Under the pieces are notes generated by a model that saw nothing but the letters and a program-made list of their open reading frames with translations, searched no databases and was not told the DNA's origin. Below are positions 12,961 through 62,480 of a stretch of 64,000 bases of DNA, piece by piece. Position 1 is the stretch's first letter; each line of letters starts with the position of its first letter. The position numbers and the translations under genes were made by a program. Source of the DNA: Patescibacteria group bacterium (lineage in GTDB: Bacteria > Patescibacteriota > Patescibacteriia > GWA2-46-9); assembly GCA_041675205.1 (NCBI GenBank), contig JBAYUF010000001.1:84863-148862 (forward strand). Direction: 5' to 3'.

Positions 12961-13305
12961 AGCTGCGTATGATAATTGGTATAGGTAATAGAATGAAGAA
13001 GTAGCAAGAATAGGCGTATACTATATCAGGGAATCACTCAGGGGTCAAAACGTTGCTTGCGTATTTTTAAGAGTCCTCGGGTGCCGCTTCCGGTTACTTT
13101 CATGCGCGGTGACTGTTTCCGCTGACGAGTTTTTTGTTTTTTCTCGACAGACCGAACAGTCGGATGGTCGAGATCGTAATCATGCAGTGGTCGCTCAAGC
13201 ATAACAGTAGACAGTGTGCCAGTTTGGTGGTACAGTTGGCAACTGTTTCAGGTTCCGTTTGTTGCTACGAATTCTTTTAACCAAGCCTTTCACTTGGTGC
13301 GTCCT

Positions 13306-13989
13306 ATGGATCAGCATTCGCAAGCAGTACCGAAGCGGTGGCGGCATTGGTTGGCGCTCATCGTTATAGTTGGCGTTTTTATAGGAGCACTGTTGCTTCG
13401 ATTATTTGGTTCGGGCGATACCTTGCCGTCCAGGTCTGGATTTACCGTTGGAACTGTTCCGACCAACAGTACGGGCGCTGGGTCGCTAACTCGCTCAAGT
13501 AATCCCACCCTTGGACCAATTGATGCCCCCGTTCAAATAATTGAATTTTCAGATTTTGAGTGCCCGTTTTGTCAGCAGTCTTATTCCGCTATTCGAACGT
13601 TGGCGTTGCGCTACCCAGAAAAAGTGCGCGTCGTTTACCGACACTTCCCCGTGGCGTCTATTCATCCAAACGCGGTAGCTGTGGCTGAAGCCGCTCAGTG
13701 TGCTGCAGCGCAGGGAAAATTTTGGCCGTATCACGATCGATTATTTCAGAATCAATCCGCTATGACGAAAGTTCATCTCATACGGTATGCCAGTCAGGTG
13801 GGTTTGAGCGAACAGCAATTTTTAACCTGTATTGAAACAAGAGCGCAGCAGGTAGTAGTGGAAGAAGATTTGGCTGATGGCGTACGCCTTGGGGTGCGTG
13901 GTACCCCGACGTGGTTTATAAATGGTGAAAAAATAGAGGGTGCGCTGACGCTCGAAGGACTTACGGGCGTGGTTGAGCAGTTTAAGTAA
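13306..13989 (+). CDS. DsbA-family thiol:disulfide oxidoreductase, N-terminal TM anchor (copy 1)
   Basis: CPFC active site within FSDFECPFCQQ. C-terminal GTPTWFING cis-Pro region. The ORF-track start at 13216 is probably too early. Confidence 0.75.
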   Translation: MDQHSQAVPKRWRHWLALIVIVGVFIGALLLRLFGSGDTLPSRSGFTVGTVPTNSTGAGSLTRSSNPTLGPIDAPVQIIEFSDFECPFCQQSYSAIRTLALRYPEKVRVVYRHFPVASIHPNAVAVAEAAQCAAAQGKFWPYHDRLFQNQSAMTKVHLIRYASQVGLSEQQFLTCIETRAQQVVVEEDLADGVRLGVRGTPTWFINGEKIEGALTLEGLTGVVEQFK

Positions 13990-13991: not shown

Positions 13992-14990
13992 ATGAAGCGT
14001 TTTTTTCTAACAAGTAGTCTTTCTGTTGCCATGCTGATGCCGCAGCTGGTAAGGGCAATTGAATTTGTGCCATCAATATCAATTCCTGGAGTCGCTACAG
14101 CTGGCGAAAAAATTACCATTACGGGCAGTACTTTTGGTGAGTATATTGTCGGTCTATACAGTACGTCGCTGTCCGTTGGTGCGATTCTTTCCACGATTGT
14201 TTTACTCGTAGCTGGTTTTATATGGCTGACAGCGGCCGGGAATGTTGGTCAAATCGAAACAGCCAAAGATGTCGCCGGTGGAGCTGTGTCAGGTTTAGCC
14301 TTACTTTTATTGTCGTGGGTATTACTCAACACCATTAATCCTAATTTGGTTAATTTTAAAACCCTCGATATTGAATCAATTGTTGAACGGCCACTTTTTG
14401 ACTCACAAACAACATATTGTTGTTTGTGTGGAGAAACAAACCCAACATGTTCTGATCGTGTTACCCCATCAAAGGGTGAATGTCGCTGTACTGATACGAG
14501 CCTTTCAAAACTGTACGTATCAGAAAGTGAATGTGCTGCTCTTGGAGTCGGCTGTCAGTACATTGCGCAAACGGAAGCTGTACAGCGGCAAAATGCTCTT
14601 TCAATTTGTCAAAAAGAAAATCCGAGTAAAACGTGTCGATTACATACTTCTTCAGCAACGTGTTCAAATGTGGCGGAATGCCAAGCTGACTTAATAAGTA
14701 GTGGACGTTCGGGGCCATGTACATTAGAGAATAGCTGCGCATCTACATATGCATGTAACAAGGCGTGGGATTGTAGTACCGCAACCCCGAAACTAATTGG
14801 ACCAGATGAGATGGGCTGGGCTGGTATAAGGGGGTGTTGCAGACCAGCCGGTCGCGACGGTGATGCGTGTGGTGATGACGGATTAATAGATACTGCAAAT
14901 GATGATTGTGCTTCTGGCTACCATTGTGTAGCTCCGGATACTCACTATGGGCCAGCTTTTGAAGTCGGTGTCTGTCGTCCGAACACGTAA
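13992..14990 (+). CDS. secreted VirB2/TrbC-like two-helix pilin domain fused to a ~190-aa Cys-rich (~26 Cys) extracytoplasmic domain (copy 1)
   Basis: Sec signal peptide (…LVRA). Hydrophobic helix [15 protein letters not shown]. Short polar loop. Second helix [23 protein letters not shown]. Paralog at 48130-49191. Confidence 0.6.
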
Positions 14991-34455: not shown

Positions 34456-34467
34456 GTAAATTTCACT

Positions 34468-35894: not shown

Positions 35895-36326
35895 ATGCAG
35901 CAGTTTATTATTCCCCAGTTCATTGATGAAGAACCCCATATTCTTGGGCCGATAACTGTTCGACAGTTTTTGCTGCTTCTCATTGCGGGCTTCTTTATTT
36001 TCCTCAGCTATCGACTCGCGGATACTGCCTTATTTATTGTGCTGACCATAGTACTACTCATCATAAGCATAACTTTGGCATTCGTTCGGGTGAACGGTCG
36101 CCCTTTTCATTTCTTTTTGCTAAATTTAGTGCAGACATTGCAACGTCCTCGGTTACGCATTTGGCGCAAAGAAGTGAGCAGAGAAGAAATTCAGGACGAA
36201 TCAAAAATGCCAGTCCTCGTCCCAACTGTCATAGTGGCGAAAGCGCCCATTAGTCGTTCCCGTTTGGCGGAACTCTCACTCATTGTTGATACGGGTGGGG
36301 CATATGCTGGTACTGAAGGTAATTAG
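35895..36326 (+). CDS. VirB3/TcpE/PrgI-like small membrane protein (143 aa, two TM helices)
   Basis: Size, two-helix topology and its position immediately upstream of VirB4. Confidence 0.45.
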   Translation: MQQFIIPQFIDEEPHILGPITVRQFLLLLIAGFFIFLSYRLADTALFIVLTIVLLIISITLAFVRVNGRPFHFFLLNLVQTLQRPRLRIWRKEVSREEIQDESKMPVLVPTVIVAKAPISRSRLAELSLIVDTGGAYAGTEGN

Positions 36327-36343
36327 CGTGTAATTGAAAATAA

Positions 36344-37045
36344 GTGGCTAAAAGAAAGGCAAACAAGGCAACACTGAGTACCCAGCGATTTCTAGAAATC
36401 GCTGAAGTGCATGATGATACCGTTGTCCTTAAGGATGGTAGCCTGCGTGCGGTACTACTTGTTTCGTCAATCAATTTTGCCTTGAAGTCAGACGATGAAC
36501 AGGAAGCGATTATTCAGGGATATATGAGCTTCTTGAACTCTATCGATTTTTCGCTTCAAGTGGTTATGCAATCTCGCCAGCTGAATATCGCTGGCTACCT
36601 TGATAAGTTAACAGCCATTGAGCGTGAGCAGACTAACGAGCTCTTAAAGATGCAGACGGGTGAGTACCGTCAATTTATTAGAGAATTGGTTGAATTGGGG
36701 CAGATTATGAATAAGCGGTTCTATGTGGTGGTGCCATATCAACCTGGGAGCGACAGTCAAAAGCCATTTTTTGCACGACTCCGTGAGGTGTTGCGACCAG
36801 CTTCAATCTTGCGTCTCAGTGAGGATCGGTATCTTCGGCATCGACATGAATTAATGCAGCGGGTTGATCATGTGACGAGCGGGCTTAATTCTTTAAGCCT
36901 CGAAGTTCGCATGCTTGATACACAGACGTTAGTTGAACTGTATTATGGAACGTATAATCCTGAGAGTGCGCGGTTAGCGCCACTTGTTGATCTCCATGAT
37001 TTGCAGGTCGATGATACGGCGTTCCGTTCTACACCATCACTATGA
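36344..37045 (+). CDS. N-terminal domain of a Gram-positive-type VirB4 ATPase, encoded as a separate ORF
   Basis: The [38 protein letters not shown] … RFYVVVPYQP pattern matches what I recall of TcpF/PrgJ N-termini (uncertain). Stop overlaps the next ATG (ATGA). Confidence 0.5.
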   Translation: MAKRKANKATLSTQRFLEIAEVHDDTVVLKDGSLRAVLLVSSINFALKSDDEQEAIIQGYMSFLNSIDFSLQVVMQSRQLNIAGYLDKLTAIEREQTNELLKMQTGEYRQFIRELVELGQIMNKRFYVVVPYQPGSDSQKPFFARLREVLRPASILRLSEDRYLRHRHELMQRVDHVTSGLNSLSLEVRMLDTQTLVELYYGTYNPESARLAPLVDLHDLQVDDTAFRSTPSL

Positions 37046-38898
37046 TTACCTTGAATCGAAATAAAAAAAAGATTGCTGCCGCTGCTGAATCCGTTTCGGT
37101 CGAATCTTCAGCGCAGAGCCGAGAGGCGTTGGAGATCGCAAGAGTTTACCAGAAAGGCGTTATTCGATTGCGTGATATTGTCGCGCCGACTGCGTTTGAG
37201 GTTGAAGCATCGTATATTAAGTTGAATGACCAGTACGTGCGCACACTCTTCATAACAGAGTATCCACGGTACATCTCGGTTGGTTGGTTCGCACCACTCA
37301 TCAATGTTAGTACAACCATTGATCTGGCACTCTATATTTACCCAGTGAGTTCGGGAATTGTTTTAAAGCAACTCCGAAACAAGGTGGGGTCACTGGAAGC
37401 AGAAATTATCGCGGAGCACGAAAAGGGTGCACCGCGCGATCCTATTAAAGAAACAGCATTAAAGGATATTGAACGACTCAGAGATGACCTGACACAGGGG
37501 GTAGAGAAGTTCTTTCAATTTGGGCTTTATGTGACGTTGTACGCTGATACGCTTGAGCATCTTGATAGGACAACAGGGGATATCGTGCAGCTGCTTGGCA
37601 CGAAGCTTGTCTATGCTCGAAAGGTGCTCTATCAGGCAGAGCAAGGCTTTATTTCAACCGTCCCACTTGGCGTTGATGAACTGCAGATTACCTTCAACAT
37701 GAACACGTCACCTATTTCTTCTGCGTTTCCCTTTGTTTCTTCAGAACTGACTAGTGACGACGGCATACTGTACGGTATCAATAGGCACAATAACAGCCTC
37801 ATTCTCTTTGATCGGTTCTCGCTGCAGAATGCGAATACGGTCGTGTTCGCCACCTCTGGAGCTGGAAAATCGTACACTATTAAGCTTGAGGTACTGCGGT
37901 CCCTTATGCTTGGGGTGGACGTTATTGTGATTGACCCTGAAAAGGAATATCAACACCTTTCTGAAGCGGTCGGTGGCACCTACTTAAATATTTCATTGGC
38001 CAGCGAAAGCAAGGTAAACCCTTTTGATTTACCGCGCGGTATTGGTGACGATATACAGACAGGGGACGTCATTCGTAGTGCCGTCATTACGCTGAAGGGA
38101 TTACTTCGTATCATGCTCGGTACGTTAACAAGCGAAGAGGATTCGCTGCTTGATCGCGCCCTCTTGGAAACATATGCCAAAAAAGACATTACACCCGAAT
38201 CTGACTTAACCCGAGTAGAGCCACCAATTTTGGCCGACCTGGAAGACGTTTTGAACGGTATGCAAGGCACGCAAGATATGGTGGCCCGGTTGCAAAAATA
38301 TACCAAGGGGACGTTTGCCGGACTTTTGAATAGCACAACAAACGTCGTCACTGATAATCAACTAATTGTTTTTTCAATCCGAGATTTGGAAGATGAATTG
38401 CGACCAATTGCAATTTACACAATTATAAACCACATTTGGAATTTGGTTCGCAGCGAGCGAAAGAAGCGGATTCTTGTAATTGATGAAGCCTGGTGGATGA
38501 TGCAGCACGAAGACAGCGCCAAGTTTATATTTGCGTTAGTGAAACGGGCTCGTAAATACTATCTTGGGGTAACGACTATCACGCAAGACGTCAGCGACTT
38601 TTTAAGTTCACCGTATGGATTAGCGGTAGTGAATAACTCAGCGATGCAACTCTTGTTGAAACAGTCACCAGCCGCCATTGATTTGGTACAGAAGACATTT
38701 CTTTTGACTGAAGGCGAGAAGTACCTGCTACTGGAGGGCAGTGTTGGTGAAGGCATTTTCTTTGCTGGGCCGAAGCATGCGGCTATTAAAGTTGTGGCTT
38801 CGTATACGGAAGATCGTTTGATTACAACTGACCCACGGCAACTCTTAGAAATGGAGGCGGCGGCAAAGCGCGACAACGCTACACCGCCAGTAGCATAA
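37042..38898 (+). CDS. VirB4/TrbE/CagE-family T4SS ATPase (C-terminal 618 aa including ATPase core)
   Basis: YVRTLFITEYPRYISVGWFAPLIN block. Walker A FATSGAGKSYT. Walker B/DEAW block ILVIDEAWWMM. Confidence 0.8.
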   Translation: MITLNRNKKKIAAAAESVSVESSAQSREALEIARVYQKGVIRLRDIVAPTAFEVEASYIKLNDQYVRTLFITEYPRYISVGWFAPLINVSTTIDLALYIYPVSSGIVLKQLRNKVGSLEAEIIAEHEKGAPRDPIKETALKDIERLRDDLTQGVEKFFQFGLYVTLYADTLEHLDRTTGDIVQLLGTKLVYARKVLYQAEQGFISTVPLGVDELQITFNMNTSPISSAFPFVSSELTSDDGILYGINRHNNSLILFDRFSLQNANTVVFATSGAGKSYTIKLEVLRSLMLGVDVIVIDPEKEYQHLSEAVGGTYLNISLASESKVNPFDLPRGIGDDIQTGDVIRSAVITLKGLLRIMLGTLTSEEDSLLDRALLETYAKKDITPESDLTRVEPPILADLEDVLNGMQGTQDMVARLQKYTKGTFAGLLNSTTNVVTDNQLIVFSIRDLEDELRPIAIYTIINHIWNLVRSERKKRILVIDEAWWMMQHEDSAKFIFALVKRARKYYLGVTTITQDVSDFLSSPYGLAVVNNSAMQLLLKQSPAAIDLVQKTFLLTEGEKYLLLEGSVGEGIFFAGPKHAAIKVVASYTEDRLITTDPRQLLEMEAAAKRDNATPPVA

Positions 38899-43359: not shown

Positions 43360-43789
43360 CCTGAGGGAGGGATTTCCGGCGTGTCTCGTCGTCAGCAGTA
43401 CGACTCAGTGCTCTAATTTGAAGGGGAGGGATTCGCCTACAAATCGCTTCGGCTTCCGCCTCAGCGTTCGCAGGCCGCCCCTCGCGGTCTTCGTCGTCAG
43501 CAATACTCCTCAGACATCGCTGCGGGCTTCTCACCCCTCACACGAGCAAATCAATTTGCTCGTTCCCTTCCTCGGAACACTGACATTATTATATTTATCT
43601 TTTGGTATGTTCCTCGGAAGGTGGGTCGGGAATCGGTCACAACTCTCGTCGGCTTCCGCCTCCTCGGTCGCGACCCCGCCTCACGGTCTTCGTCGTCAGC
43701 AATACTCCTCAGACATCGTTCCGGCTTTCGAATCCCTCACGCGAATGAAGCAGTTCATTCGCTCCCTTCCTCGTTCACAAAGTTCACTT
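43360..43789. repeat. array of degenerate tRNA-Ser(GCT) 3'-end copies (43420, 43608) with a 28-31-bp repeat family (43384-43414, 43489-43518, 43690-43720) and repeated hairpin+tcccttcctcg blocks, 3' of the intact tRNA
   Basis: cgtcgtcagcaatactcctcagacatcg occurs twice, ~200 bp apart. gaaggggagggattcgcc and ggaaggtgggtcgggaatcgg mimic the tRNA 3' end. Confidence 0.65.
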
Positions 43790-43879
43790 CGGAAGGGGAG
43801 GGATTCGAACCCTCGGTACGGAAAAAAACCGTACAACGGTTTAGCAAACCGTCGCCTTAGGCCACTCAGCCACCCTTCC
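43790..43879 (-). tRNA. tRNA-Ser (anticodon GCT), long variable arm, CCA not encoded
   Basis: Reverse complement has GGAAGGG/CCCTTCC acceptor, anticodon loop TTGCTAA, a long extra arm and T-loop TTCGAAT. Confidence 0.85.
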
Positions 43880-44099
43880 GTATGCATCTGGCTACGCCAG
43901 ATTATAAAAAACCGTCGGCTTCGTGCCCCCGGGGTTGTTTTTTACAACCCGCCGAATGCTGCGCCTTCTCGCATTCAGCCCACTCAGCCACCCTTCCATC
44001 AAGTATTTAACGTCTGCCAAGTGTAGCCGCGAGGGGTCGATTCGTCAATTGACAAAATTGACCCAACACAGGCATTTCCGTATACTTCTCAAGTAAACT

Positions 44100-44710: not shown

Positions 44711-46777
44711 GTGAAGTACCATACGTTAACCAGTTCAATTGCAATACTTTCCGGCGTGGGGCCGAAGCGTGCTGCTTTGTTTGCGCAGCTTGGTATTAAC
44801 ACCATTGAAGATTTGCTATTGCATGCCCCCAGCGGCTATGTTGATTATTCACACCTGGCCACGATTGCAGAAGCCGGAGCAGGCGAACCCATTGCGCTGC
44901 GGGGTGAACTATCAAGCGTAAAATCTCGTCGCAGCTTTCGAAATAGAAAAGTATCGATTCATACAGCCACATTTTCAGACGATACTGGCAGCATTCAGGT
45001 AACGTGGTTTAATCGGTTTTCTATTCCTGCACTGCGTAGTGGCCCTGTGTATTTGACGGGTGTAATGCAGCTGGTTGACGGTAAGAAGCAAATTAGTAAC
45101 CCAATCGTTGAATCTGGGGACTGTGAACCGGTCGTCGCAAATCACATACTTGCGGTTTATCCTTTAACAAAAGGGCTTCAGCAGTGGCACGTCCGTCATG
45201 CAGTAGCTGCGGCGTTACCACTGCTTTCTAAATGCACTGACCCACTGCCTGGTCAGATTCGTGTGGCAAATAAGCTCGTTACTTGGTTGGAGTCGATACG
45301 AGATATTCATGCCCCACGTGACTTGCAAGTCGTTTTAACTGCCAGGCGACGGTTGGCCTTTGATGAATTACTAACATTTCGATTGGCACAGGCATTTGTG
45401 GCTCGAGATGCGGGCAAACAACGTTCGCATAAAATTACGGTTTCAGCTTCAAAGCGAGCAACGTTGTTGGCGCAGCTACCATTTCAGTGCACGCCTGAGC
45501 AGCAGCAAGTGCTTGAGGCTGTTTTTGAGGACATTGCGAAATCCAAGCCAGCCCGTCGATTAATTCAGGGTGAAGTAGGAACTGGCAAAACCGTGATTGC
45601 TGGTATGGCGCTTGCGGCTACTGTCCAGCAAGGCTTACAGGGATTGTATCTAACCCCGACCGATGTACTGGCCCGTCAACAGTATGAAACCCTGCATACG
45701 TGGCTAGAAGGCCTTGGGGTTAAGGTTGCCCTACTGACAGCTCGGACAGGCCTGTATGCTGGTCTCCCCGCCACGCCGCTAGCAGTACGAAGGCTTGCAG
45801 CTAGTGGAGAGCCAGTACTATTTGTTGGAACTCATGCGGCTGTTACCCACAAAACGACATTTTTAAAACTCGGGTTGGTTGTAATTGATGAGCAGCACCG
45901 TTTTGGCGTTGGACTTCGTCATCGAGCGTTTCAATCAACCGGCCGTTCACTCGTTCCCCATACTATTTCTATGACCGCCACACCAATTCCGCGAACATTA
46001 CAGCGAGCTATGCTGGAAGGCTTTGTTTATTCGACGCTTCATACGCCGCCGTTTGGTAAGCGACGAGTACACACTGCCATTGTGCCCACAGACAAACGTT
46101 CGATTGCTGAGGCCCGTTTACGAAAACGTTTACAGACAGGTGAGCAGGCCTTTGTTGTTTGTCCGCTCATTGACCCATCAGATGTGCTGGGTGTTCAGTC
46201 AGTGCAGGAAATGTTGCTGCACCTTCGGCACGTTTTACCAGACAGCACTATTGCCGCAGTACATGGGCGTCTTTTGCCGGCGGAAAAAGTGTCTATTTTT
46301 GCTGATTTTAAAGCAGGTAAGATTCAGGTTTTAGTAGCAACAACAGTAATTGAAGTTGGTATTGATGTTCCAGCCGCGACAATAATGGTGATCGAGGGCG
46401 CGGAACGATTTGGCTTAGCACAGCTGCACCAATTGCGTGGACGAGTTGGTCGTGCGGGCGGTGAAGGTTTCTGTTTGCTGTACGTAACCAAAATGACTGC
46501 TCGGGTACTTCACAGGCTGCGTTTATTTGCGAAGACCGATGACGCTTTCCGTTTGGCCGAGTTGGATTTATCACTGCGCGGTCCGGGTGAATGGTTTGGC
46601 TTTCGACAATCTGGTTTTCCTGAGCTGCGATTTGCCGACCTTTCAGATTCCGAAACACGTGCCCTGGCTGATTCAGCGGCGGAGACACTTTTGCGCATTG
46701 ACCCTAAGGGAGCGACGTATCGAAAATATTATGAGGCTGCGCAAAAGCTATGCAGCAGCGCCGATACTGGTCTTTAG
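44711..46777 (+). CDS. recG: ATP-dependent DNA helicase RecG
   Basis: Walker A GEVGTGKT. RecG-type motif VVIDEQHRFGV. Wedge-domain N-terminus. 688 aa. Confidence 0.9.
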   Translation: MKYHTLTSSIAILSGVGPKRAALFAQLGINTIEDLLLHAPSGYVDYSHLATIAEAGAGEPIALRGELSSVKSRRSFRNRKVSIHTATFSDDTGSIQVTWFNRFSIPALRSGPVYLTGVMQLVDGKKQISNPIVESGDCEPVVANHILAVYPLTKGLQQWHVRHAVAAALPLLSKCTDPLPGQIRVANKLVTWLESIRDIHAPRDLQVVLTARRRLAFDELLTFRLAQAFVARDAGKQRSHKITVSASKRATLLAQLPFQCTPEQQQVLEAVFEDIAKSKPARRLIQGEVGTGKTVIAGMALAATVQQGLQGLYLTPTDVLARQQYETLHTWLEGLGVKVALLTARTGLYAGLPATPLAVRRLAASGEPVLFVGTHAAVTHKTTFLKLGLVVIDEQHRFGVGLRHRAFQSTGRSLVPHTISMTATPIPRTLQRAMLEGFVYSTLHTPPFGKRRVHTAIVPTDKRSIAEARLRKRLQTGEQAFVVCPLIDPSDVLGVQSVQEMLLHLRHVLPDSTIAAVHGRLLPAEKVSIFADFKAGKIQVLVATTVIEVGIDVPAATIMVIEGAERFGLAQLHQLRGRVGRAGGEGFCLLYVTKMTARVLHRLRLFAKTDDAFRLAELDLSLRGPGEWFGFRQSGFPELRFADLSDSETRALADSAAETLLRIDPKGATYRKYYEAAQKLCSSADTGL

Positions 46778-48126
46778 GAAGAGAGCGTTTTAAGAAGTGT
46801 GGTCGCTTCTAGAAGTGTTTGTGCGATGAGTTTCTTTGGTTGACTTGGTAATTTTTCGTCCACTCGGGGGCTCGCAATGATTGCTGCAGTAATACCGAGC
46901 CGTTTGGCTGTTTCTAGGCGCCGAGCGGCTTCTGATACAGGACGAACGTCACCGTGCAACCCTAACTCGCCGTACGCCATAAGTGTTCGCGGGACCGGCA
47001 GATTGTGTATGGCACTAATGATTGCAAGCGCTACTGGCAAATCAAGCGCCGGCTCGGTTACTTTTAGTCCTCCAACTAAGTTACAGTGAATATCAAAGTT
47101 CGAAAGTGACTTCCGAAACTGTTTTTCTATAACCGCAGTTATAAGCTGCAAACGATTCGTATCAAAGCCGCTACTCCGTCGTTTGGCATTACCAGAGCGG
47201 GTCGGGGATAGCAAGGCCTGTACCTCGACCAGAAAAACCCGTGAGCCTTGCACAAGCGGCGCAAGCATTGTGCCAGGGACGGGACGTTTCGTGAGATCGA
47301 TGAAGGTAGCCGAAGGGTTTTGTACAGGACACAAACCTGCGGCCGCCATTTGCCACACACCAATTTCTGTAATACCGCCAAATCTATTTTTAATAGCTCG
47401 AAGTATTCGATGTAAGCCGTCGTCGCTTTTTTCAAAGTATAGAACAGTATCAACCGTGTGCTCGATTAGTTTTGGTCCAGCGATGCCGCCGGTTTTTGTA
47501 ACGTGTCCAATGATGACAATGGGTGTTGCTGTATGTTTGGCAATCTCAAGCAGCGCATCTGTTGCATCGGCCAGGTCTCTCGGTCGGTTTGCCGTAGCAC
47601 CGCGTTCTGTGCGCATGGTTTGTAAAGAATCAATAACGACGAGTGCGGGTTTTAGGGTTGCAATGCCATGAGTAATATTTGCAATCGTTGGTTCGTCGAG
47701 AAAGTGCAGTGCGTCATTTGTAATGCCTCCCAAACGGTTCAGACGAAGCCGAACCTGCTCACCTGATTCTTCACCTGAGACGTAGAGAATAGAGCGATTA
47801 GCCAGTGCCAAGTGTCGAGCAATTTGCAGCAGGAGTGTTGATTTTCCTACACCAGGGTCGCCGCCAATCAGAATAAGTGCGCCGGCCACAACTCCACCAC
47901 CCAAGACCCTGTCGAATTCTTCGTCGCCAGTGGGGAAACGGGTTGCGCCTTGTGGTGAGGAAAAATTACGAAGCGACGTTGCCGCCTTTGTGGCAGTAGT
48001 CTTTGCCGCTTTTACAGGCGCTGAAACGATAAGCGTACCCCAGGCTTCACAGTTGCGACATTTACCTTCCCATTTTGGGAAGTGGGCGTTGCAGGCTGCG
48101 CAGGAATAAGAAGCGACCTGTTTCAT
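46774..48126 (-). CDS. radA: DNA repair protein RadA/Sms
   Basis: N-terminal C4 zinc finger (CSAC…CRNC). Walker A GDPGVGKSTLLLQ. Lon-like C-terminal domain. 450 aa. Confidence 0.9.
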   Translation of the reverse strand: MKQVASYSCAACNAHFPKWEGKCRNCEAWGTLIVSAPVKAAKTTATKAATSLRNFSSPQGATRFPTGDEEFDRVLGGGVVAGALILIGGDPGVGKSTLLLQIARHLALANRSILYVSGEESGEQVRLRLNRLGGITNDALHFLDEPTIANITHGIATLKPALVVIDSLQTMRTERGATANRPRDLADATDALLEIAKHTATPIVIIGHVTKTGGIAGPKLIEHTVDTVLYFEKSDDGLHRILRAIKNRFGGITEIGVWQMAAAGLCPVQNPSATFIDLTKRPVPGTMLAPLVQGSRVFLVEVQALLSPTRSGNAKRRSSGFDTNRLQLITAVIEKQFRKSLSNFDIHCNLVGGLKVTEPALDLPVALAIISAIHNLPVPRTLMAYGELGLHGDVRPVSEAARRLETAKRLGITAAIIASPRVDEKLPSQPKKLIAQTLLEATTLLKTLSS

Positions 48127-48129: not shown

Positions 48130-49191
48130 CTATTTTGTCGCTGTGCAGTCGTTCATTTCAATGTGCATATGGGGTGGTTTCGTTTCCCAGAGTGGGGGTT
48201 CATACCCACCACCGATATTTGGACACTTTGCTACTATAATGTCGCGTATCCTATCAAAGTCTTCAAACGTTCTTGCTCGTATATCGACTGCGCATGAGAA
48301 TCCCGATGGTAGAGAGCCAGATGAAAGCTCACCATAGTGCTTAGAGCCACGGTGATGTTGGCAGTTTGTACTGCTACTGTACGTTTCGTTTGGGTCCCAA
48401 GGGGTGCAGGTTCCTTTGGCAATATTATCGTCAGAGATGCTGTTAAATGTTACGTCTACATTGGACTTGATACAGCTCATCAATTCAGCTAGTTGTTTTG
48501 TTGCGTGCGCTCCTTGGTCAGAAGCAATTGGTAAATCGGAGAAGGTATCTTCGCCAAGTGTGACCTTTGTGCAACAGCAAACGTTTGTTCCCTCTGTTGG
48601 TTGTGGCTGGGGGCAAGAGGAGAAATTGGCGTAGGCCGCGCCTGGGCATTGCTCACTGCCGGCTGGGAATTTTTCTAAATCGCGCCATGAACAAAATTGC
48701 GCAGCATCAATGATGGCCTTTTGTTCGAGTGGTACATTAGCAATATATGCTAAGTTCAGCGCAGTGAACTTCGTTAGCTGGGGGTTAACCGTGTAGAGGA
48801 TTACATATGAACCGAGCATGAGTACAAGCCCTATGACAGCGCCGCCAGCGTAGGTCTGGGCGAGGGAGATTCTATTCGTGTTTCCCGCAGCCGTTAGCCA
48901 TATAAAACCAGAAACTAGTAACACTATGGCCGCAAGTAGTGTAGCGGCGCTAACCGCTAGAATATATAAACTGGCTATGTATTCGCCAATCCAGGGTATG
49001 CCGATGCACCTTTGAGTGGGATTTGAAATATCCGAGCATGCAGTGGGCGCTCCAATAGCTGAAAAGTCTACGATTTTAAACGTTAAATCAGGTACTTTAA
49101 ATTTCGGCTCTTCAGCCTTCGCTACTGTGCCAACGAAAGAAATGGTCAACGACGCAACGAGTACCGCCAGTGCTATGAAGCGCCGGTTCAT
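48130..49191 (-). CDS. secreted VirB2/TrbC-like two-helix pilin domain fused to a Cys-rich extracytoplasmic domain (copy 2, paralog of 13992-14990)
   Basis: Signal peptide. [16 protein letters not shown] … AGGAVIGLVLMLGSYVILYTVNP is conserved with copy 1. The C-terminal domain is divergent and carries ~12 Cys. Confidence 0.6.
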   Translation of the reverse strand: MNRRFIALAVLVASLTISFVGTVAKAEEPKFKVPDLTFKIVDFSAIGAPTACSDISNPTQRCIGIPWIGEYIASLYILAVSAATLLAAIVLLVSGFIWLTAAGNTNRISLAQTYAGGAVIGLVLMLGSYVILYTVNPQLTKFTALNLAYIANVPLEQKAIIDAAQFCSWRDLEKFPAGSEQCPGAAYANFSSCPQPQPTEGTNVCCCTKVTLGEDTFSDLPIASDQGAHATKQLAELMSCIKSNVDVTFNSISDDNIAKGTCTPWDPNETYSSSTNCQHHRGSKHYGELSSGSLPSGFSCAVDIRARTFEDFDRIRDIIVAKCPNIGGGYEPPLWETKPPHMHIEMNDCTATK

Positions 49192-49192
49192 A

Positions 49193-49891
49193 TTATTGCT
49201 TCGTAGCGTGGAGATTAATGACTTGTGTCAGTTCTTCGCTCGTAATGAGGCCGGACACTCGCTGGTCATTTATGAATAGATACGGAGTACCATCCACACC
49301 AAGCGCGTTACCTTCTTGTACGTTTCGCAATACCATATTTTTCGCTTCAGTACTTTCCATGCAAGCCGTAAAGGTATTCGATTTCAAACCCAACGCTGAC
49401 CCAAGGGCTAGTAGGTTGTCTTGGTAGTGGTTTGTGGTAGCAAATAGCGCATCGTGAAATTCCCAGAACTTACCTTCTTTACCGGCACACCAGGCAGCTG
49501 TGTGGGCTACGAGCACATTTGGGTGTACAGACGAAACAGGAAAATCGCGCCAAACGAGACGTGCTTTTTTATTCGTGTCCACCTCACTCTTTAAAAGCGT
49601 CGCCATGTCCCGACAGTAGGGGCAATCAAAGTCAGAAAAAATAACAATTTTTACCGGTGCGTCTGAAGCGCCGTATGAAAAATCATCAGACCGTGTGGTG
49701 GGTTCGGTTATCGTGGGCGTTCTTGTCCCAGTGACAAGTGGGTTACCAGCAGGCTCGAACGTACTCCCGGTGTTTATGGGTTGGGATGTTGTTGGTAGAA
49801 GCGTAAAGCGTAAAAAGAGGTATAACGTAACAATGGCTGCTAACAGTATGGCACCGACAAACGGGAGAAGGGTTGTTTGTGATTGTTTCAT
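49193..49891 (-). CDS. DsbA-family thiol:disulfide oxidoreductase, N-terminal TM anchor (copy 2)
   Basis: CPYC active site within FSDFDCPYCRD. GVDGTPYLFIND cis-Pro region. Paralog of 13306-13989. Confidence 0.75.
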   Translation of the reverse strand: MKQSQTTLLPFVGAILLAAIVTLYLFLRFTLLPTTSQPINTGSTFEPAGNPLVTGTRTPTITEPTTRSDDFSYGASDAPVKIVIFSDFDCPYCRDMATLLKSEVDTNKKARLVWRDFPVSSVHPNVLVAHTAAWCAGKEGKFWEFHDALFATTNHYQDNLLALGSALGLKSNTFTACMESTEAKNMVLRNVQEGNALGVDGTPYLFINDQRVSGLITSEELTQVINLHATKQ

Positions 49892-51069
49892 AGACGTAGA
49901 CGAGAAATCCCGCCAAAAATAGTTTCAATAGTTAGCCACAGTCCGTCAGTGCTGACCGAGAGCTGCCGAACTGTTTCAATGGGAACATCTGGGCCAATCT
50001 GTTCACGGGTGCCAGTGGCAAGATCAATTGCAAAAAGGTTATCGCGGTAGCTATCAGCAATACTTGGCGAAAGCCCTGCCCCTTCGGGTAGTTCTGTTGG
50101 AACAGCGCAGACAACTTTTGTCTGGCTGGAGAAGGTGCATTTGTCGGCCCACGTTGTAACGCCAATGCTGTGCCTGTTAGCGCCAATAGCTTCACCACTG
50201 GCATCAACCAACCACACCGTCGGCCGGTAACCTGTTGCGGCAGACGAGACACTGTAGAGCAACCGTTGCCCATCTGGCGTCCATTTGGCTTGCATGCCGA
50301 CACCTGGAACAGTGAGTGATCGGTAGTTCTCTCCATTGAGGCCAATCAGGAAGATATCTTGCTGGTCAGCGGCAGACGGGGTGTGCTGATACCCAAGTAT
50401 GTCCCCTCGAGGGGACCACAGCACGTCAACTGAGGCAGCATTCCTACCGAGTGGTTCAATTGCTTTTGCGGCTGTGCCGTCGACATTTGCTGTGCCCAGC
50501 CAGTTATTATCTGGGTCGAGTGCCAAACTTTTGAAGGCGAGAGATTCACCAGTTTTGTTAAAAGAAAAATCTTCCCAGTGTTTTGGGAGGGTGTACTGCG
50601 TATCCGATTGAAAATCATAGACAATATTTGCGCCGTCCGGAAATTCAATAACTGCCTGCTCGCTCGTAGGTGACCAGGTAACATTTTCTGCGCCCAAAAA
50701 TGATTTTTCTCCAAGTTGTTTGATTGTTCCGTCTATAGCAACTTGCTGAAATTCGCCGCTTCTGGGTTGATAGAAGCGAACGTTACCAGTGTTGGCGGTG
50801 GTGCTAAATACTGAACCAGTTGTGGTAATTGCCGTTGGTGCTTCGACTGCTGTGCCGTCTGCGCCAATCAGTACAGTTCTGCCGTCGACAGTTGTTCTTG
50901 GTGCACCAGGTCGAGCCGTAGGCAGCGTGGCGGAGGGGGTGGGGGTGGGCGCACTAGGGGGCGTTGGTGTTTTTTTGAAAGCGATACTATAAAGGAGCGT
51001 TGCTATAAGAGCAACGAGCAGGAGGAAACCAGTGATGAGCAGTATTTTTCTAAGTGAAATATGTGGCAT
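49888..51069 (-). CDS. membrane-anchored beta-propeller protein with TolB/PD40-like repeats
   Basis: N-terminal TM segment and Pro/Thr-rich linker. Repeated WSP/WTPDGQRLLY-type motifs. Confidence 0.55.
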   Translation of the reverse strand: MPHISLRKILLITGFLLLVALIATLLYSIAFKKTPTPPSAPTPTPSATLPTARPGAPRTTVDGRTVLIGADGTAVEAPTAITTTGSVFSTTANTGNVRFYQPRSGEFQQVAIDGTIKQLGEKSFLGAENVTWSPTSEQAVIEFPDGANIVYDFQSDTQYTLPKHWEDFSFNKTGESLAFKSLALDPDNNWLGTANVDGTAAKAIEPLGRNAASVDVLWSPRGDILGYQHTPSAADQQDIFLIGLNGENYRSLTVPGVGMQAKWTPDGQRLLYSVSSAATGYRPTVWLVDASGEAIGANRHSIGVTTWADKCTFSSQTKVVCAVPTELPEGAGLSPSIADSYRDNLFAIDLATGTREQIGPDVPIETVRQLSVSTDGLWLTIETIFGGISRLRL

Positions 51070-51071: not shown

Positions 51072-53495
51072 CTAGGCGAGTCGCCAGCGATTGCCATGCT
51101 TCGTCAAAGCGAGGGTAAGCGGCTTCACGCCGCGTCGAGCGAGCAGCCGTTTGGCAAGCGCTTCCTCTACAGTACCACGGAGCACATGTTGAATGCTACG
51201 GGCGCCGTTGCCGTGCACTGTTGCGGCTGTTAAGAGGGCAGTGCGCGCGGCGTCAGGCACCAGCAGTGTTACGCCGCGCTCTGCTAAACGTTCGTTGAGT
51301 AAAGCAACCTCTCTCTCGAGTAACGTTGCGAGCTCGTCATTTGCAAGAGACGTTAAGGATAGTACAGCGTCAAAACGTTCGCGAAGCTCTCCAGGCAGGA
51401 GTTTGGCCGTAGCTTCGAGAATATCTTCACTAGCGGCTGTTGCGTTATGCGTACCAAAGCCCAGCGAACTGGCCTCCTTGGGGAGCGGGTTCATGGTGGC
51501 GACTATTATGGTTTGTCGAAAGCTGATGACTCGTCCCGCACCATCTCGGAGAGACCCTTCGCTTAGTATTTGTAGGAGCAATTGGTAGACATCCCTATGG
51601 GCACGGTTAAGTTCGTCAAAGAGGATGACGCGATACGGTCGCCGTCGTACAGCCTCCGTTAGTGCGCCGCTTTCCTTGTAGCCAACGTAGCCAGCTGGTG
51701 CGCCAATAAGTTTCGCGACCGTGTGTCCCTCGGTGTACTCACTCATATCAAAGCGAAGCAGGGCATCCTCGGATTGGAAAAGTGTTTGGGCCAACGCTTT
51801 CGCCAGCGTTGTTTTTCCGACGCCGGTAGGACCAGCCAGGAGAAACGAGGCCAGGGGACGATGCCTATCAGATAAACCTAACGACGAGCGGCGGATTGTT
51901 TCTGAAACGGTTCGTCGAACATGCTCATGACCAATAAAACGTTCACCAAGCGACGCTTCTAAATTATTGAGTCGGGCGTGCTCGTCGAGGGCGAGTTCAC
52001 GCACGGGTACACCTGTCCAGGCGGTGAGGATTTCGGCCACCGTCTTTGCCGTCACTGTTGGTAGGTCAGTTGAATCATCGGCCGCAAATGAGGCTTCAAG
52101 CTCCAGCCGACGAGCATGGTGGTCGCGTGCTTCGTCGCGCCAACGAATCGCTTCTTCAAATCGTTCCTGTGTTGTGGCCGTTTCTTTGCGTTTTGTGGCC
52201 GTTCGTTCAGCGGCGGTGACTTCTTGAATGCGACCAATGAGGGCTGGCGTTGCACTTTTTAGTGCTGCTCGAGCGGCTGCTTCATCAATAAGATCGATTG
52301 CCTTGTCAGGGAGAAACCGTTCTGGTAGGTAGCGTTCGCTAAAGCGGATGGCGGCGTCAATGGCTTCATCAGTAATACGAACACCATGGTGCATTTCATA
52401 GCGACGACGAAGTGCGTGGAGAATATCACGGGTCGCGCTTGGGGTTGGTTCAGACACGCGTACTGGTTGGAAGCGTCGTTCAAGCGCGCCATCAGATTCA
52501 ATATGCTGGCGATACTCTTCGAGAGTTGTGGCACCAATGCAGCGAAGTTCTCCACGAGCCAGCGCTGGTTTTAGAAGATTAGCCGCATCAATAGAGCCTG
52601 TGGCAGCGCCGGCGCCCACAATGGTGTGTAATTCGTCGATGAATATAATGATGTCTGTGTTGCGTTTCAGTTCGTCTAAGACCTGCCGTATGCGGTTTTC
52701 AAATTCACCTCTAAACATTGTACCCGCAATAAGTGAACCAACGTCGAGCGATACGATGCGCTTGCCTTTGAGTGCTGTGGGAACGTTCCCTTCGGCAATC
52801 CGTTTAGCGAGCCCTTCGACAATGGCAGTTTTACCTACGCCCGGATCGCCAAGGAGGACGGGGTTATTTTTTGTGCGACGAAGTAGTATTTGCATGACCC
52901 GTTCTATTTCTAGTTCACGGCCAATGACCGGGTCGATTGCCGCCGCTCGTTCAGGATTTGTTAAATGAGTACCAAACCCCTTAATGACGCTTGGTAACTC
53001 ATCAAGCTCGTCGCTTGTTGTCGCGGTATCAATAAAGGTTTCCGTTAGTTCGGTTAACTTTGCGTCACTCTTCATAACGAGCTCGAGTTGTTTTGCTAGC
53101 TCACGAGTATCCCAATGACTGTGGCGAAATAGTCGAAGCGCTTCCCCCGGACGGTCGAGGATGGCCTGTAGGAGATGTTCAGTTCCTATATACGTGTGCT
53201 GTGCACGGTAGGCAATGGCGGTTGCCCGCATCAGTGCTCGACGCGCATCAGCAGACAGGAGTGGCGTTGCGGTGCTTGTTGCTGTTGTTTGCTCAATTAA
53301 GAAGGAACGCAACGCTTCAATGTCGAGTTTTGCACTTGCTAGCAGCTCAGCTGACAGGGAACCACGAGTTTCTGCCAAGGCGAGGAGCAGGTGAATCGGC
53401 TCAACGGTTGCCTGCTTCGCTTCCCGTGCTAGCGTATTTGCTCGACGGAGCGCGAGAGAAAGGTAGCCGCTGAATTTTGTAGATTTAGTAGACAT
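51072..53495 (-). CDS. clpC: Clp/Hsp100 AAA+ ATPase (ClpC-like: two Clp_N repeats, two AAA modules, short middle domain)
   Basis: Walker A motifs [15 protein letters not shown] and [15 protein letters not shown]. 807 aa. Confidence 0.85.
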
Positions 53496-53497
53496 AC

Positions 53498-54385
53498 TTA
53501 TGCTCCGCCACCCATTGTCCGGAGCGCGGTAATCCGCTCTTCCAGGGGTGGGTGGGTAGAAAATAGAGAAGCGAGTCGTCGGGATGAGCGTGGGAAGGGG
53601 CTGGCAAAATAGAGTGAGGCTGTGGCGTTTGAGGCGCTCGTTGTCATTTGGTTAGCGTCAGCAATTTTTTCTAGCGCCGAAGCCAGCCCTTCAGGATAGC
53701 GACTGAGCAGCGCGCCATCAGCATCGGCTAGAAATTCACGGCGGCGTGAGATGGCCAGTTGTAATAATTTGGCAATAATCGGGCTTAGTACAGCCAGTGC
53801 CAATCCGACGATAATCAAAATTGGTGGGGTGTTCTTTGTGTCCCGATTCCTGCCAAAGAGGTGGGAGTGAATGAAGAAGTCTGAAGCGATAGCAATGAAG
53901 CCAACCAGTGTAATGGCCAGCATGAGATACCGCGTGTCGAAGTTTTTAATGTGAGAAAGTTCGTGTGCCAGGACACCTTCAAGCTCATTCTTGCTTAATG
54001 TCTGTCGGAGCCCTGCAGTAACCGCGATACTTGCGTGCGCTGGGTCACGACCAGTGGCAAATGCGTTCAGGGCGCTGTCTGGCAAGAGATACAATTTTGG
54101 CGTTGGTATACCGGCAGTAATGGCCAAGTTTTCAACTATGCGGTGTAGTTCAGGGTCTGCGTCGTAGGGCAGCGACACAGCACCGGATCCTGTAAGAGCG
54201 ATTTTATCACCCGCGAACCAGCTCGTGAGCGTACTGGTGAGTGCCAAGAAACCAGCCATGACTAACAGTGCTGGAGTGTTGCCACTAATCGTACCGAAGA
54301 CGTAGCCAATAAGAAGCACCAAAGCAACTACCGCACTGATCAGCAGTATAGACCGTCGTTTATTCGCAACAATTTGTTGATACAT
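53498..54385 (-). CDS. htpX: M48 zinc metalloprotease HtpX
   Basis: HEXXH motif AHELSHIKN. Multiple TM segments. 295 aa. Confidence 0.85.
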   Translation of the reverse strand: MYQQIVANKRRSILLISAVVALVLLIGYVFGTISGNTPALLVMAGFLALTSTLTSWFAGDKIALTGSGAVSLPYDADPELHRIVENLAITAGIPTPKLYLLPDSALNAFATGRDPAHASIAVTAGLRQTLSKNELEGVLAHELSHIKNFDTRYLMLAITLVGFIAIASDFFIHSHLFGRNRDTKNTPPILIIVGLALAVLSPIIAKLLQLAISRRREFLADADGALLSRYPEGLASALEKIADANQMTTSASNATASLYFASPFPRSSRRLASLFSTHPPLEERITALRTMGGGA

Positions 54386-54942
54386 TAGGTAAAGGAAACA
54401 GCAACAGGTTCACGACTGGCCGTTGCATCAAGCTCAAAGAACTCTGCTTGGTGGAAACCAAGTGGGCCAGCAATGAGGTTGGTCGGGAAGACAGTTTGTT
54501 TAATGTTGTAGTCTCGCACCAGTCCGTTATAGAACCGTCGGGCAGCTTGTACTTTGTTTTCTGTATCAGCCAGTTCACGCTGCAGCTCAACAAAATTGGT
54601 GGATGCTTTGAGGTCTGGGTAGCTTTCTGCGACCGCAAATAAGCCACTGAGACTGTTTCCGAGTGCCGCTTCTGCTATGCCTCGTTCCGCCATGGTGGCG
54701 GCTTGCAGGGCAGCTGCTCGGGCCGCGGTTACTTTTTCTAATGTACCAGCTTCATGCGCCTTGTACCCCTTAACGGTTTCGACAAGATTTGGAATAAGGT
54801 CAGAGCGTCGTTTCAGTTGGATATCGATATCCGCCCAGGCCTCAGTCACGTGGGTGCGGGCACGAATCAATCCATTGTAAAAAGAAATGATTCCTAAAAT
54901 AATGACGACAGCAATAATGGCAAAAATACTTAGTGGTGTCAT
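54385..54942 (-). CDS. lemA: LemA family protein
   Basis: N-terminal TM segment and LemA-type conserved region (NGLIRARTHVTEAWADIDIQLKRRSDLIPNLVETVKGY). The lemA-htpX pairing is common. Confidence 0.8.
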   Translation of the reverse strand: MTPLSIFAIIAVVIILGIISFYNGLIRARTHVTEAWADIDIQLKRRSDLIPNLVETVKGYKAHEAGTLEKVTAARAAALQAATMAERGIAEAALGNSLSGLFAVAESYPDLKASTNFVELQRELADTENKVQAARRFYNGLVRDYNIKQTVFPTNLIAGPLGFHQAEFFELDATASREPVAVSFT

Positions 54943-55093
54943 AGGAATTTTCTTGTAATGTGTGGTATAATAAATTTTGAGCGAACCATATTTTCAATCA
55001 TTTTCTTTTGCAATCGTACCGAAAAAACAAGCAAACGTCAACGTTTGCGGAATTTATTTCTCGCCCTGTTGTTCGGGGTATGTATACAAACGC

Positions 55094-56107: not shown

Positions 56108-56113
56108 CGAACT

Positions 56114-57052: not shown

Positions 57053-57054
57053 CC

Positions 57055-57447
57055 ATGCCAGGGAACGAGCAACAGGCGAAGGTGTTATTAGTTGAGGATG
57101 ATGTAGGAATTTCTGAAATGTATGCGACGGCACTCCGTATGGCTGGGTACACTGTGCAGACAGCCCTTGACGGAGCAGCCGGACTTGTTGCCGCGATCAC
57201 CGAACCACCCGACGTTGTACTTCTTGACATCATTTTGCCAGAGCTCGATGGGTTTGATGTGCTGCAGCGACTAAAGGGAAACAGTAAGACAGCACAGATT
57301 CCCGTTCTCCTTTTGTCTAATCTCAGCCAACCAGAGCAGGTGGAGCGGGGTAAAGTACTTGGCGCTGTGGATTATTTTGTAAAAGCGAACCACATTCCAG
57401 CAGATATCGTTCGTCGACTGGGTGAATTGTTGCCTGGTCGTTTGTAA
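57055..57447 (+). CDS. single-domain response regulator (CheY-like receiver), no output domain, no kinase adjacent
   Basis: Receiver motifs LLVEDD, LLDIILP (phospho-Asp site), S…K. 130 aa. Confidence 0.8.
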   Translation: MPGNEQQAKVLLVEDDVGISEMYATALRMAGYTVQTALDGAAGLVAAITEPPDVVLLDIILPELDGFDVLQRLKGNSKTAQIPVLLLSNLSQPEQVERGKVLGAVDYFVKANHIPADIVRRLGELLPGRL

Positions 57448-57552
57448 ACCGTTGCGAAGAAGTTGTATGACTGGTAAACTACTCTCGTGCATTTACGCAC
57501 TTGTGCATAGTGATATGATTCAAAATTTTCAACTGAAAGGGGGTGAACACGC

Positions 57553-57981: not shown

Positions 57982-58007
57982 TTTTCGATTCACTATTTCG
58001 TTTTCAT

Positions 58008-58044: not shown

Positions 58045-58057
58045 GTCGTAACTGTTT

Positions 58058-59701: not shown

Positions 59702-62480
<2,779 letters not shown>

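Follow-up and report, generated by a model that had tools for sequence, protein, structure and literature searches.

A DsbA gene paired with a pilin-type hairpin protein that carries a LAS-type zinc-peptidase-like domain in a Patescibacteria genome

At positions 48130–49891 of a 64,000-nucleotide (nt) stretch of DNA from an ultra-small bacterium (Patescibacteria group bacterium; assembly GCA_041675205.1, contig JBAYUF010000001.1; the whole stretch is termed the window), a gene for a DsbA-type oxidase is directly followed by a gene for a 353 amino acid (aa) protein with a pilin-like hairpin and a cysteine-rich C-terminal region. What does this hairpin carry, and why is a DsbA gene next to it? 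An earlier note on the window termed the pair module 2, as the second of two paralogous modules, and suggested that diversified extracellular domains provide alternative pilus subunits or tips. Both open reading frames are present, and both sequence strings quoted in that note are found in the 353-aa protein. The analysis given here points to an enzyme and its client: a peptidoglycan peptidase that is borne by a pilin-type hairpin and is probably folded with the help of the adjoining DsbA. The 353-aa protein is most likely not an adhesive pilus tip.

The features of the gene pair are as follows.

49193..49891, minus strand: dsbA gene of module 2, 232 aa, with FDCPYCRD in its translation.
48130..49191, minus strand: hairpin-LAS fusion gene of module 2, 353 aa.
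49114..49191, minus strand: predicted Sec signal peptide, residues 1–26 (MNRRFIALAVLVASLTISFVGTVAKA, followed by EE), with a hydrophobic segment at 3–26 and then A-K-A.
48757..48996, minus strand: VirB2/T4SS_pilin-type helical hairpin, residues 66–145, assigned by homology to the module 1 hairpin and by a custom hidden Markov model (HMM).
48529..48726, minus strand: membrane-proximal Cys-rich linker, residues 156–221, with 6 Cys including C205-C206-C207 and low AF2 confidence.
48133..48528, minus strand: LAS (Hedgehog/DD-peptidase fold) zinc-peptidase-like domain, residues 222–353, with 6 Cys.

The stop codon of dsbA lies 1 nt ahead of the hairpin-LAS start, and the dsbA start overlaps by 4 nt with the stop of the upstream gene. 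The description of the first protein as a DsbA with a CPYC active site is confirmed. It scores above the cut-offs of PF13462 Thioredoxin_4 (95.2 bits, cut-off 23.2) and PF01323 DSBA (67.6 bits, cut-off 25.6), and no NCBIfam equivalog threshold was attained. The CPYC motif is at residues 90–93 (C90/C93; DNA positions 49613–49624), a GTPY cis-Pro loop is present within GVDGTPYLFIN, and there is a further Cys pair, C135/C177. Hydropathy shows one N-terminal hydrophobic segment (positions 4–35) before the thioredoxin domain, which forms a membrane anchor; with this single anchor, the DsbA would be extracytoplasmic. No DsbB, VKOR or BdbC partner was found among those open reading frames of the window, a part of the total, that were scanned with Pfam.

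The 353-aa protein is 100% identical to a protein from an NCBI metagenome-assembled genome (MAG), WC052_00580 (Patescibacteria group bacterium; 246-kb contig), which is annotated as hypothetical. Its order of parts is signal peptide, N-terminal exposed segment, VirB2/T4SS-pilin-type hairpin, Cys-rich linker and LAS-like zinc-peptidase domain. The signal-peptide cleavage site was taken from the sequence by reading, with no predictor. Hydropathy segments are at positions 3–26, ~68–105 and ~108–137, and AF2 places helices at 68–100 and 105–135 (pLDDT 75–80). The hairpin consists of a first transmembrane helix (~68–100), the polar loop AGNTNRISLAQTY (101–113) and a second helix (~114–137), followed by an NPxL motif. 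There are 14 Cys: two before the hairpin (C52 and C62), none inside it and 12 after it, which agrees with the figure of about 12 given previously for the C-terminal region. C167 and the CCC motif of the linker are invariant across seven close homologs. By analogy with the topology of VirB2 and TraA, the C-terminal domain would lie outside the cell.

The layout of signal peptide, two hydrophobic helices and short polar loop is that of VirB2, the pilin of type IV secretion systems (T4SS). Two other properties of T4SS pilins are not found. The protein is not small and essentially hairpin only, as it has 353 aa with a 208-aa C-terminal extension, and it is not encoded near virB4, which lies at 37042–38898 on the plus strand, ~9 kb from the minus-strand hairpin-LAS gene and in another operon.

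The 353-aa protein has no Pfam pilin match, and the module 1 protein gives 18.2 bits with PF18895 (T4SS_pilin), under the cut-off of 26.6. In the family as a whole, PF18895 is matched by 23 of 35 members and TrbC/VirB2 by 9 of 35 (E ≤ 0.1). The PF18895 cut-off is passed by the hairpin homologs P0011 (34.6 bits), P0016 (31.2 bits) and P0030 (31.6 bits), and by all four short tandem pilins (110–160 aa) of related MAGs that were scanned (28.9–48.6 bits). The custom hairpin HMM gives 91 bits on the 353-aa protein, 76 on the module 1 protein and 50–72 on the short pilins. The polar motifs W-L-T-A-x-G-N and N-P-x-L are invariant. Judged by these sequence comparisons, the hairpin is a genuine VirB2-type pilin fold. 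The word pilin is used here for the T4SS VirB2 type, distinct from a separate type IV pilus cluster in the window. Among the six-frame open reading frames of the window, the custom HMM finds two hairpin genes (91 and 76 bits), the next best score being 6.7 bits, and no short canonical VirB2 gene adjoining virB4.

The second hairpin gene belongs to module 1.

13216..13989, plus strand: dsbA gene of module 1, with a CPFC active site and GTPT; PF13462, 92.6 bits. The true start may be downstream of the GTG at 13216.
13992..14990, plus strand: hairpin protein of module 1, 332 aa, with a 22-Cys C-terminal domain (190 aa).

The two modules have an identical gene order on opposite strands, 33.1 kb apart, and pairwise alignment of the two pairs supports their description as paralogs. 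The hairpins share 46 identities over 87 aa (53%; BLASTP with compositional adjustment, E = 7e-21) and the DsbAs are 39% identical over 163 aa (E = 2e-37). The wording of the earlier note, that the hairpin is shared almost residue-for-residue, is too strong, as the identical stretch is limited to the core; the homology itself stands. The Smith-Waterman score of the hairpins is 225 versus 33±6 for shuffled sequences (z = 31.8), and z is 24.2 when the hydrophobic/polar pattern is kept, so that the similarity is not a low-complexity hydrophobic match. The C-terminal parts of the two proteins are unrelated (z = −1.1), in keeping with the divergence previously proposed. Neither Pfam, NCBIfam nor PDB sequences gave a match to the 22-Cys domain of module 1, in which a catalytic motif is not obvious either.

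The C-terminal domain of module 2 had been described as just Cys-rich. This is incomplete: its sequence and predicted structure indicate that it is a domain of the LAS-type zinc-peptidase fold, with metal and catalytic residues kept across its family. The family is small. An exhaustive HMMER search with residues 156–353 yielded only 34 representatives in 1.84 billion proteins; these, together with the close homolog P0005, form a 35-sequence alignment. Seven full-length homologs have an invariant S283-x-H285-Y-G, V302-D303 and H341-x-H343. In the larger alignment S-x-H-Y is kept in 35 of 35 sequences and the C-terminal H-x-H in 34 of 35; D254, C277, S283, H285, Y286, D303 and H343 are invariant, and S251, C262, H279, G287, S299, A301 and H341 are conserved at 90% or more. 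H285, D303 and H343 are the proposed Zn ligands and H341 is the proposed catalytic His.

Searches by sequence alone do not place the domain in a known family. Scans of the 353-aa protein with Pfam and NCBIfam gave a spurious match to FdtA only (E = 0.049), and none of the 35 family members matches the Pfam peptidase families Peptidase_M15, M15_2/3/4, VanY or M23 at E ≤ 0.1. A phmmer search of PDB with the C-terminal half gave no match, and the domain profile gave non-significant matches only with PDB sequences (YefM, haemagglutinin, and Desert hedgehog at E = 1.8).

The assignment comes from fold and profile comparisons. A full-length AF2 model from seven sequences was poor (pLDDT 55) and was left out of the fold search. 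The Foldseek matches of the domain are individually non-significant (best E = 0.43 in PDB, 0.055 in BFVD), but they are of one kind: VldE, MepA, ChiX, LysECD7 and Peptidase M15A. A separate fold comparison has VanYB, VanXYc, VanX, LdcB, MepA and T5 endolysin among its lower-ranking entries. An hhalign comparison of the domain profile with the human Sonic hedgehog N-domain (ShhN) places QH..SxHYG/AVDI/HxHxS opposite HHSEESLHYEGRAVDI/AHIHCSV (E = 1e-4). H285, D303 and H343 are thereby opposite SLH-YEGRAV-D and AH-I-H of ShhN, at the zinc ligands of Shh. Both the characteristic fold of LAS enzymes and their His/Asp/His plus catalytic His motif are found. Their short H-x(3-6)-D spacing is not: 17 residues separate H285 and D303, and the length of this insertion varies in the family. 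No specific M15 subfamily is assigned, since hhalign found no significant similarity of the domain profile to either P0016 (a VanY fusion) or L016b (an M15_4 fusion). With Zn bound at the proposed ligands, the domain most likely cuts peptide bonds in peptidoglycan.

Relatives of the locus show what else can be fused to the hairpin. The slot clpC–~400-aa propeller–dsbA–hairpin-X–radA–recG is kept in relatives, with the following domains as cargo X.

LAS-like domain: P0006 in locus L001; P0003 in L002–L004.
SLT: P0010 (Uhrbacteria), L005/L006; the SLT slot orthologs are P0008–P0010.
VanY: P0016 (Uhrbacteria), L007.
Amidase_2: P0018.
Peptidase_M23: P0030, L008/L009.

Related hairpins at two further loci, not counted here with the slot, carry Peptidase_M15_4 and NlpC/P60. 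All identifiable cargoes on related hairpins are peptidoglycan hydrolases. At least seven kinds of known or predicted peptidoglycan hydrolase are joined to this one type of pilin hairpin, among them a small LAS-like family outside Pfam. The diversification of extracellular domains proposed by the earlier note is real, but because the relatives in the slot carry SLT, VanY, Amidase_2 and M23, it is a diversification among cell-wall hydrolases and not among adhesive tips.

Several other arrangements were seen in relatives. In the M23 lineage (L008/L009), a 503-aa PT-TG gene (PF14449, polymorphic toxin-associated) is present at 2521–4032 between clpC and the propeller gene, and behind the first hairpin fusion comes another, which matches VanY weakly. 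Other hairpin architectures are found at L018 (3921–5405), L021 (4400–10791), L016 (5782–8010) and L017 (5800–7668). Tandem fusion pairs occur in which one cargo is unassigned and the partner is M15_4 or NlpC/P60. A 458-aa hairpin protein heads a short-pilin array and has, by eye, a PG_binding_1-like motif (GPQTLNGVRAFQ..). Two hairpin proteins are giants: one has 900 aa, the other 1132 aa and 94 Cys. At L019 and L020, short-pilin arrays end in hairpin proteins of ~280 aa with 16 Cys, in which a test for the LAS-like domain was negative.

Neighbour-joining trees of the hairpins (79 columns) and of the DsbAs (175 columns), without bootstrap, group the sequences by slot and not by genome, and the two trees agree. 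Module 1 orthologs are found in a conserved slot of their own, RNaseJ–SBP–SecG–dsbA–hairpin-Cys-rich–uvrA–leuS–Sua5–ksgA, and the module 1 DsbA groups with the slot-1 orthologs L010 and L012. As the paralogs cluster by slot and the trees agree, the dsbA-hairpin pair was duplicated as a unit long ago, and a recent duplication is ruled out. The SLT-bearing hairpin nests among the LAS-bearing hairpins in the hairpin tree (again without bootstrap); the cargo was therefore swapped at a later stage, while the hairpin itself passed down vertically. In both slots synteny extends across lineages, which rules out an origin by mobile element, and the same gene order in distant relatives agrees with the absence of signs of mobility remarked on previously.

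A CC(x)C cluster is present after the hairpin in both paralogs, although their C-terminal domains are otherwise unrelated.

48571–48588: VCCCTK, residues 204–209 of the module 2 protein, ~65 residues past the hairpin; the CCC is kept in orthologs.
14415–14435: YCCLCGE, residues 142–148 of the module 1 protein, ~25 residues past the hairpin.

In the module 1 group, CCxC is present in three of five aligned relatives; P0027 has CCxx, and the cluster is absent in P0023 and P0026. Metal binding or inter-subunit disulfides are possible roles.

Why does a dsbA gene accompany the fusion? In a census of 21 loci annotated with custom HMMs, the upstream region of a long hairpin fusion is visible at 16, and at 15 of these the fusion is immediately preceded by DsbA; DsbA is absent from three arrays of 5–9 short pilins. 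The short pilins have 0–1 Cys and the fusions 10–29, none within the hairpin. In the window itself the outliers in Cys content are the two hairpin proteins (6.6% and 4.0%) and a 2821-aa protein of the T4SS operon (82 Cys, 2.9%), most others having 1% or less. That DsbA adjacency tracks Cys content supports, but does not prove, a dedicated role of the DsbA in oxidative folding. The 82-Cys protein is a further plausible DsbA client and a candidate adhesin.

The module 2 pair forms genes five and six of a seven-gene minus-strand run, lemA-htpX-clpC-propeller-dsbA-hairpin-radA. The run is as previously described, and all its junctions are 3 nt or less or overlapping.

51072..54942, minus strand: clpC, htpX (an HExxH M48 protease) and lemA, the upstream operon genes, with spacers of 2, 2 and −1 nt.
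49888..51069, minus strand: membrane-anchored beta-propeller (TolB/PD40-like), 393 aa, with a hydrophobic segment at 3–34.
46774..48126, minus strand: radA, the last gene of the operon, which starts 3 nt after the hairpin-LAS stop.

LemA matches PF04011 with 193 bits, and genes of relatives that are orthologous to the upstream operon genes show Peptidase_M48 and Clp_N/AAA domains. The 393-aa propeller gives a weak TIGR02800 TolB-propeller match (3.3e-5). A ~400-aa gene is directly 5′ of dsbA at each locus of the module 2 slot that reaches that far (L001, L002, L003, L005–L009 and the P0018 contig). The beta-propeller may belong to the module as its third member, e.g. by binding the wall or the client.

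Two surface systems flank the module, a T4SS operon of monoderm type, which lies between the two modules, and a set of type IV pilus genes.

21855–35892, plus strand: head of the T4SS operon, with a TSP3-repeat protein (235 aa) and proteins of 2821 aa (82 Cys), 1072 aa and 474 aa.
35895..38898, plus strand: T4SS core, with PrgI/VirB3-like, TrsD-like and VirB4 ATPase; PF12666 PrgI 35 bits, PF19044 TraG P-loop 101.9 bits.
36344–38898, plus strand: TrsD-like (233 aa) and VirB4 genes, the former with a 4-nt overlap with the VirB4 start.
38898–40168, plus strand: a conserved 185-aa protein with no assigned family and ComF, after VirB4.
54977–60471, plus strand: type IV pilus cluster, beyond module 2 and divergent from the lemA operon.

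The T4SS core also has matches to NF041427 (TrsD) and to the VirB4 family. The 235-, 1072- and 474-aa proteins match no Pfam family except for TSP3, in a scan that covered these three and did not extend to the 2821-aa surface protein. The 474-aa protein (34468–35892) is in the position where a VirB6-like protein would be expected. The order of VirB4, a ~188-aa protein and a phosphoribosyltransferase (ComF-like) in L002 is the same as in the window. The type IV pilus cluster contains PilM (PF11104, 158 bits), a 312-aa protein, a response regulator, an N_methyl pilin (142 aa), a PMT_2 glycosyltransferase and PilD, and the PilM neighbourhood is kept in L001 and L002.

Further features of the window are the following.

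1904–3386, plus strand: complete 16S rRNA gene (1470 bits), with no adjacent 23S or 5S gene.
5582–7213: scattered tRNA genes.
43418–44026, plus strand: a 202-aa open reading frame that looks spurious and overlaps tRNA-Ser (43789–43880, minus strand).

Unlinked rRNA genes are typical of Patescibacteria.

The probable explanation is that the pair encodes a pilin-hairpin-borne peptidoglycan peptidase and the DsbA that folds it. A Sec signal peptide would export the 353-aa protein, and the two-helix hairpin would insert in the membrane so that its loop faces the cytoplasm and the two termini face outwards; in this orientation, the 200-aa C-terminal part would be exposed on the cell surface. There the LAS domain would bind Zn through H285, D303 and H343, catalyse by means of H341 and cut the peptides of peptidoglycan. 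The membrane-anchored CPYC DsbA, probably translationally coupled to its client, would make up to seven disulfides in the exposed parts. The dsbA, hairpin and propeller genes occupy an old, conserved slot of the chromosome in Uhrbacteria-like Patescibacteria, in which hairpin and DsbA are inherited vertically and the catalytic cargo is exchanged between different peptidoglycan hydrolases.

An alternative that is less probable but has to be taken seriously is that the fusion is a housekeeping autolysin. The hairpin would be a mere anchor, and the enzyme would remodel the cell's own wall in growth and division or for passage of the T4SS or type IV pilus, in this last role as a stand-in for VirB1, with no delivery to a host. 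The conserved operon with lemA-htpX-clpC and radA, which looks constitutive and is tightly coupled, is what would be expected of such an enzyme, as is the location of the gene, which has the T4SS operon on one side and the type IV pilus cluster on the other. VirB1 is unrecognised in most Patescibacteria that have VirB2 (PMC12102498), and the hole-punching enzymes of monoderm T4SSs are varied hydrolases. However, a cell whose own wall does not change should keep the bond specificity of its autolysin, while glycosidase, amidase, DD-, LD- and endopeptidase types are interchanged here at a single slot, which would fit varying targets such as host walls. The autolysin model also leaves unexplained the use of a well-conserved pilin hairpin and not a simple transmembrane helix. 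Two observations, the unusually conserved hairpin and the exchange of bond specificity while the locus stays the same, tend to favour a conserved machinery partner and a target that varies (the host); the setting in a housekeeping operon tends to favour the opposite.

A more far-reaching version, which at present must be called doubtful, is that in Uhrbacteria-like Patescibacteria VirB2-type hairpins are polymerisable or T4SS-loadable carriers of swappable, DsbA-stabilised wall-degrading enzymes that act at host contact (an “enzymatic pilus”). If true, it would account for the usual absence of VirB1 and relaxases from these T4SSs and for the swapping of cargo at one locus, which would follow the chemistry of host walls; in part it would also explain why an epibiotic lifestyle requires the T4SS. 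If the enzymes do act on host walls, the type of cargo could help to predict the host range of uncultured lineages.

The suggestion that the fusions are alternative T4SS pilus subunits or tips, with the Cys-rich domains as adhesins for different host surfaces, is unlikely. The hairpin is genuinely of the VirB2 type, and the window, with its T4SS core, contains no short canonical VirB2 gene. The fusion hairpins are ~45–68% identical, as opposed to an average of ~25% in pilin arrays (PMC12102498), which fits a conserved machine interface; the Cys-rich domain of module 1 is without enzymatic signature; and a contribution of multiple VirB2 paralogs to host adaptation has been proposed (PMC12102498). 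On the other side, the cargo of module 2 has an enzyme fold in which all catalytic-site residues are conserved, and each recognisable cargo is a wall hydrolase and none an adhesin. The genes are in housekeeping operons and not beside virB4, and a 200-aa globular domain on every subunit would perhaps be hard to accommodate in VirB2-type helical packing.

It is also rather improbable that the LAS domain is catalytically silent, i.e. a zinc-dependent binding module, as the Hedgehog N-domain is for the most part, that would tether the cell or a pilus to stem peptides of peptidoglycan or to another ligand. H341, the first His of HxH, is conserved family-wide, as are S283 and Y286, along with the three metal ligands, and the sister proteins of the slot carry ordinary catalytic hydrolase families. 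Finally, the view that the modules are unrelated and the hairpin similarity is hydrophobic low-complexity matching only, which could draw on the A, G, I, L and V richness of both transmembrane regions and the missing Pfam pilin match, is refuted by the composition-adjusted E-value and pattern-preserving shuffles given above, the invariant polar motifs and the paralogy of the partner DsbAs.

The DsbA-folded peptidase is the explanation retained here. The locus provides a concrete and testable link between a pilin-type hairpin and peptidoglycan hydrolases in Patescibacteria. In bacteria with a life attached to other cells, the enzymes are candidates for breaching or remodelling walls, and more of them may be found by a simple rule, namely a Cys-rich hairpin fusion adjoining dsbA.

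Recent reviews term the role of the T4SS in Patescibacteria “completely unknown”, although it proved essential in the single species examined so far (PMC11665869, PMC12857230). VirB2-like pilins, unexpected in monoderm bacteria, were found in 1,948 assemblies, with arrays of 2–11 divergent pilins (Quinonero-Coronel et al. 2025, PMC12102498). The same survey found few VirB1 homologs and inferred that pilus biogenesis is VirB1-independent; it also reports that peptidase and lysozyme genes downstream of virB4 are essential in Southlakia epibionticum, and it cites Wang et al. (2023) for an essential pilin array in that species. It makes no mention of pilin-hydrolase fusions or of DsbA, and a literature search yielded no paper that combines Patescibacteria, DsbA and pilin.

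The closest known proteins are the VirB2-like/T4SS_pilin proteins of Patescibacteria (PF18895, PF04956; PMC12102498). They share with the 353-aa protein the signal peptide, two-helix hairpin and short polar loop, and the genome here likewise has a monoderm-type T4SS (PrgI, TrsD, VirB4). The described pilins, however, are short (~110–160 aa here), nearly Cys-free, ~25% mutually identical and often in tandem arrays near virB4. The hairpin-LAS protein has 353 aa, a 200-aa predicted enzymatic cargo and 14 Cys, and is encoded by a single gene after DsbA, in a housekeeping operon ~9 kb from virB4, with a hairpin that is 45–68% identical to its orthologs.

The cargo is comparable to LAS zinc metallopeptidases: VldE (9flh), the phage L-Ala-D-Glu peptidases Ply500, LysB4 and T5, the Streptomyces Zn DD-peptidase (1lbu), VanX/VanY, MepA and the Sonic hedgehog N-domain. 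It differs from these in a 10–30-residue insertion between the histidine of S-x-H-Y-G and the aspartate of A-x-D, in extra conserved Cys (C262, C277 and others), in an ITSISD motif and in having no Pfam M15/M23 match.

The VirB1-type hydrolases of monoderms, e.g. PrgK of pCF10 and TraG of pIP501, are, as cited in PMC12102498, likewise extracytoplasmic, membrane-tethered and encoded in a genome with a T4SS, and the cargoes of the slot and of related hairpins (SLT, M23, NlpC/P60-type) overlap with the domains of VirB1-like proteins. A VirB1-like protein has SLT or CHAP and is encoded within the T4SS locus; in Pfam scans the 353-aa protein has neither domain. Its gene is outside the T4SS operon, its anchor is a VirB2-type hairpin and not a single transmembrane helix, its catalytic domain is LAS-like rather than SLT/CHAP, and it has a putative dedicated DsbA partner.

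Partnerships of DsbA-type oxidases with pilins are known: BdbD/BdbC with the ComGC pseudopilin in Bacillus subtilis, MdbA with sortase pilins in Actinomyces and Corynebacterium, and TrbB of the F plasmid. In these, as is predicted for module 2, a membrane-anchored Thioredoxin_4/DSBA-type oxidase has as its partner a surface or pilus protein that is exported and bears disulfides. In contrast to them, the oxidase gene here adjoins that of one client (1–2 nt), was duplicated with it, and has kept this linkage across lineages. The parts of the module, a VirB2-type hairpin, a LAS-like hydrolase and a DsbA, are known; their combination, with cargo swapping at a conserved slot, is new.

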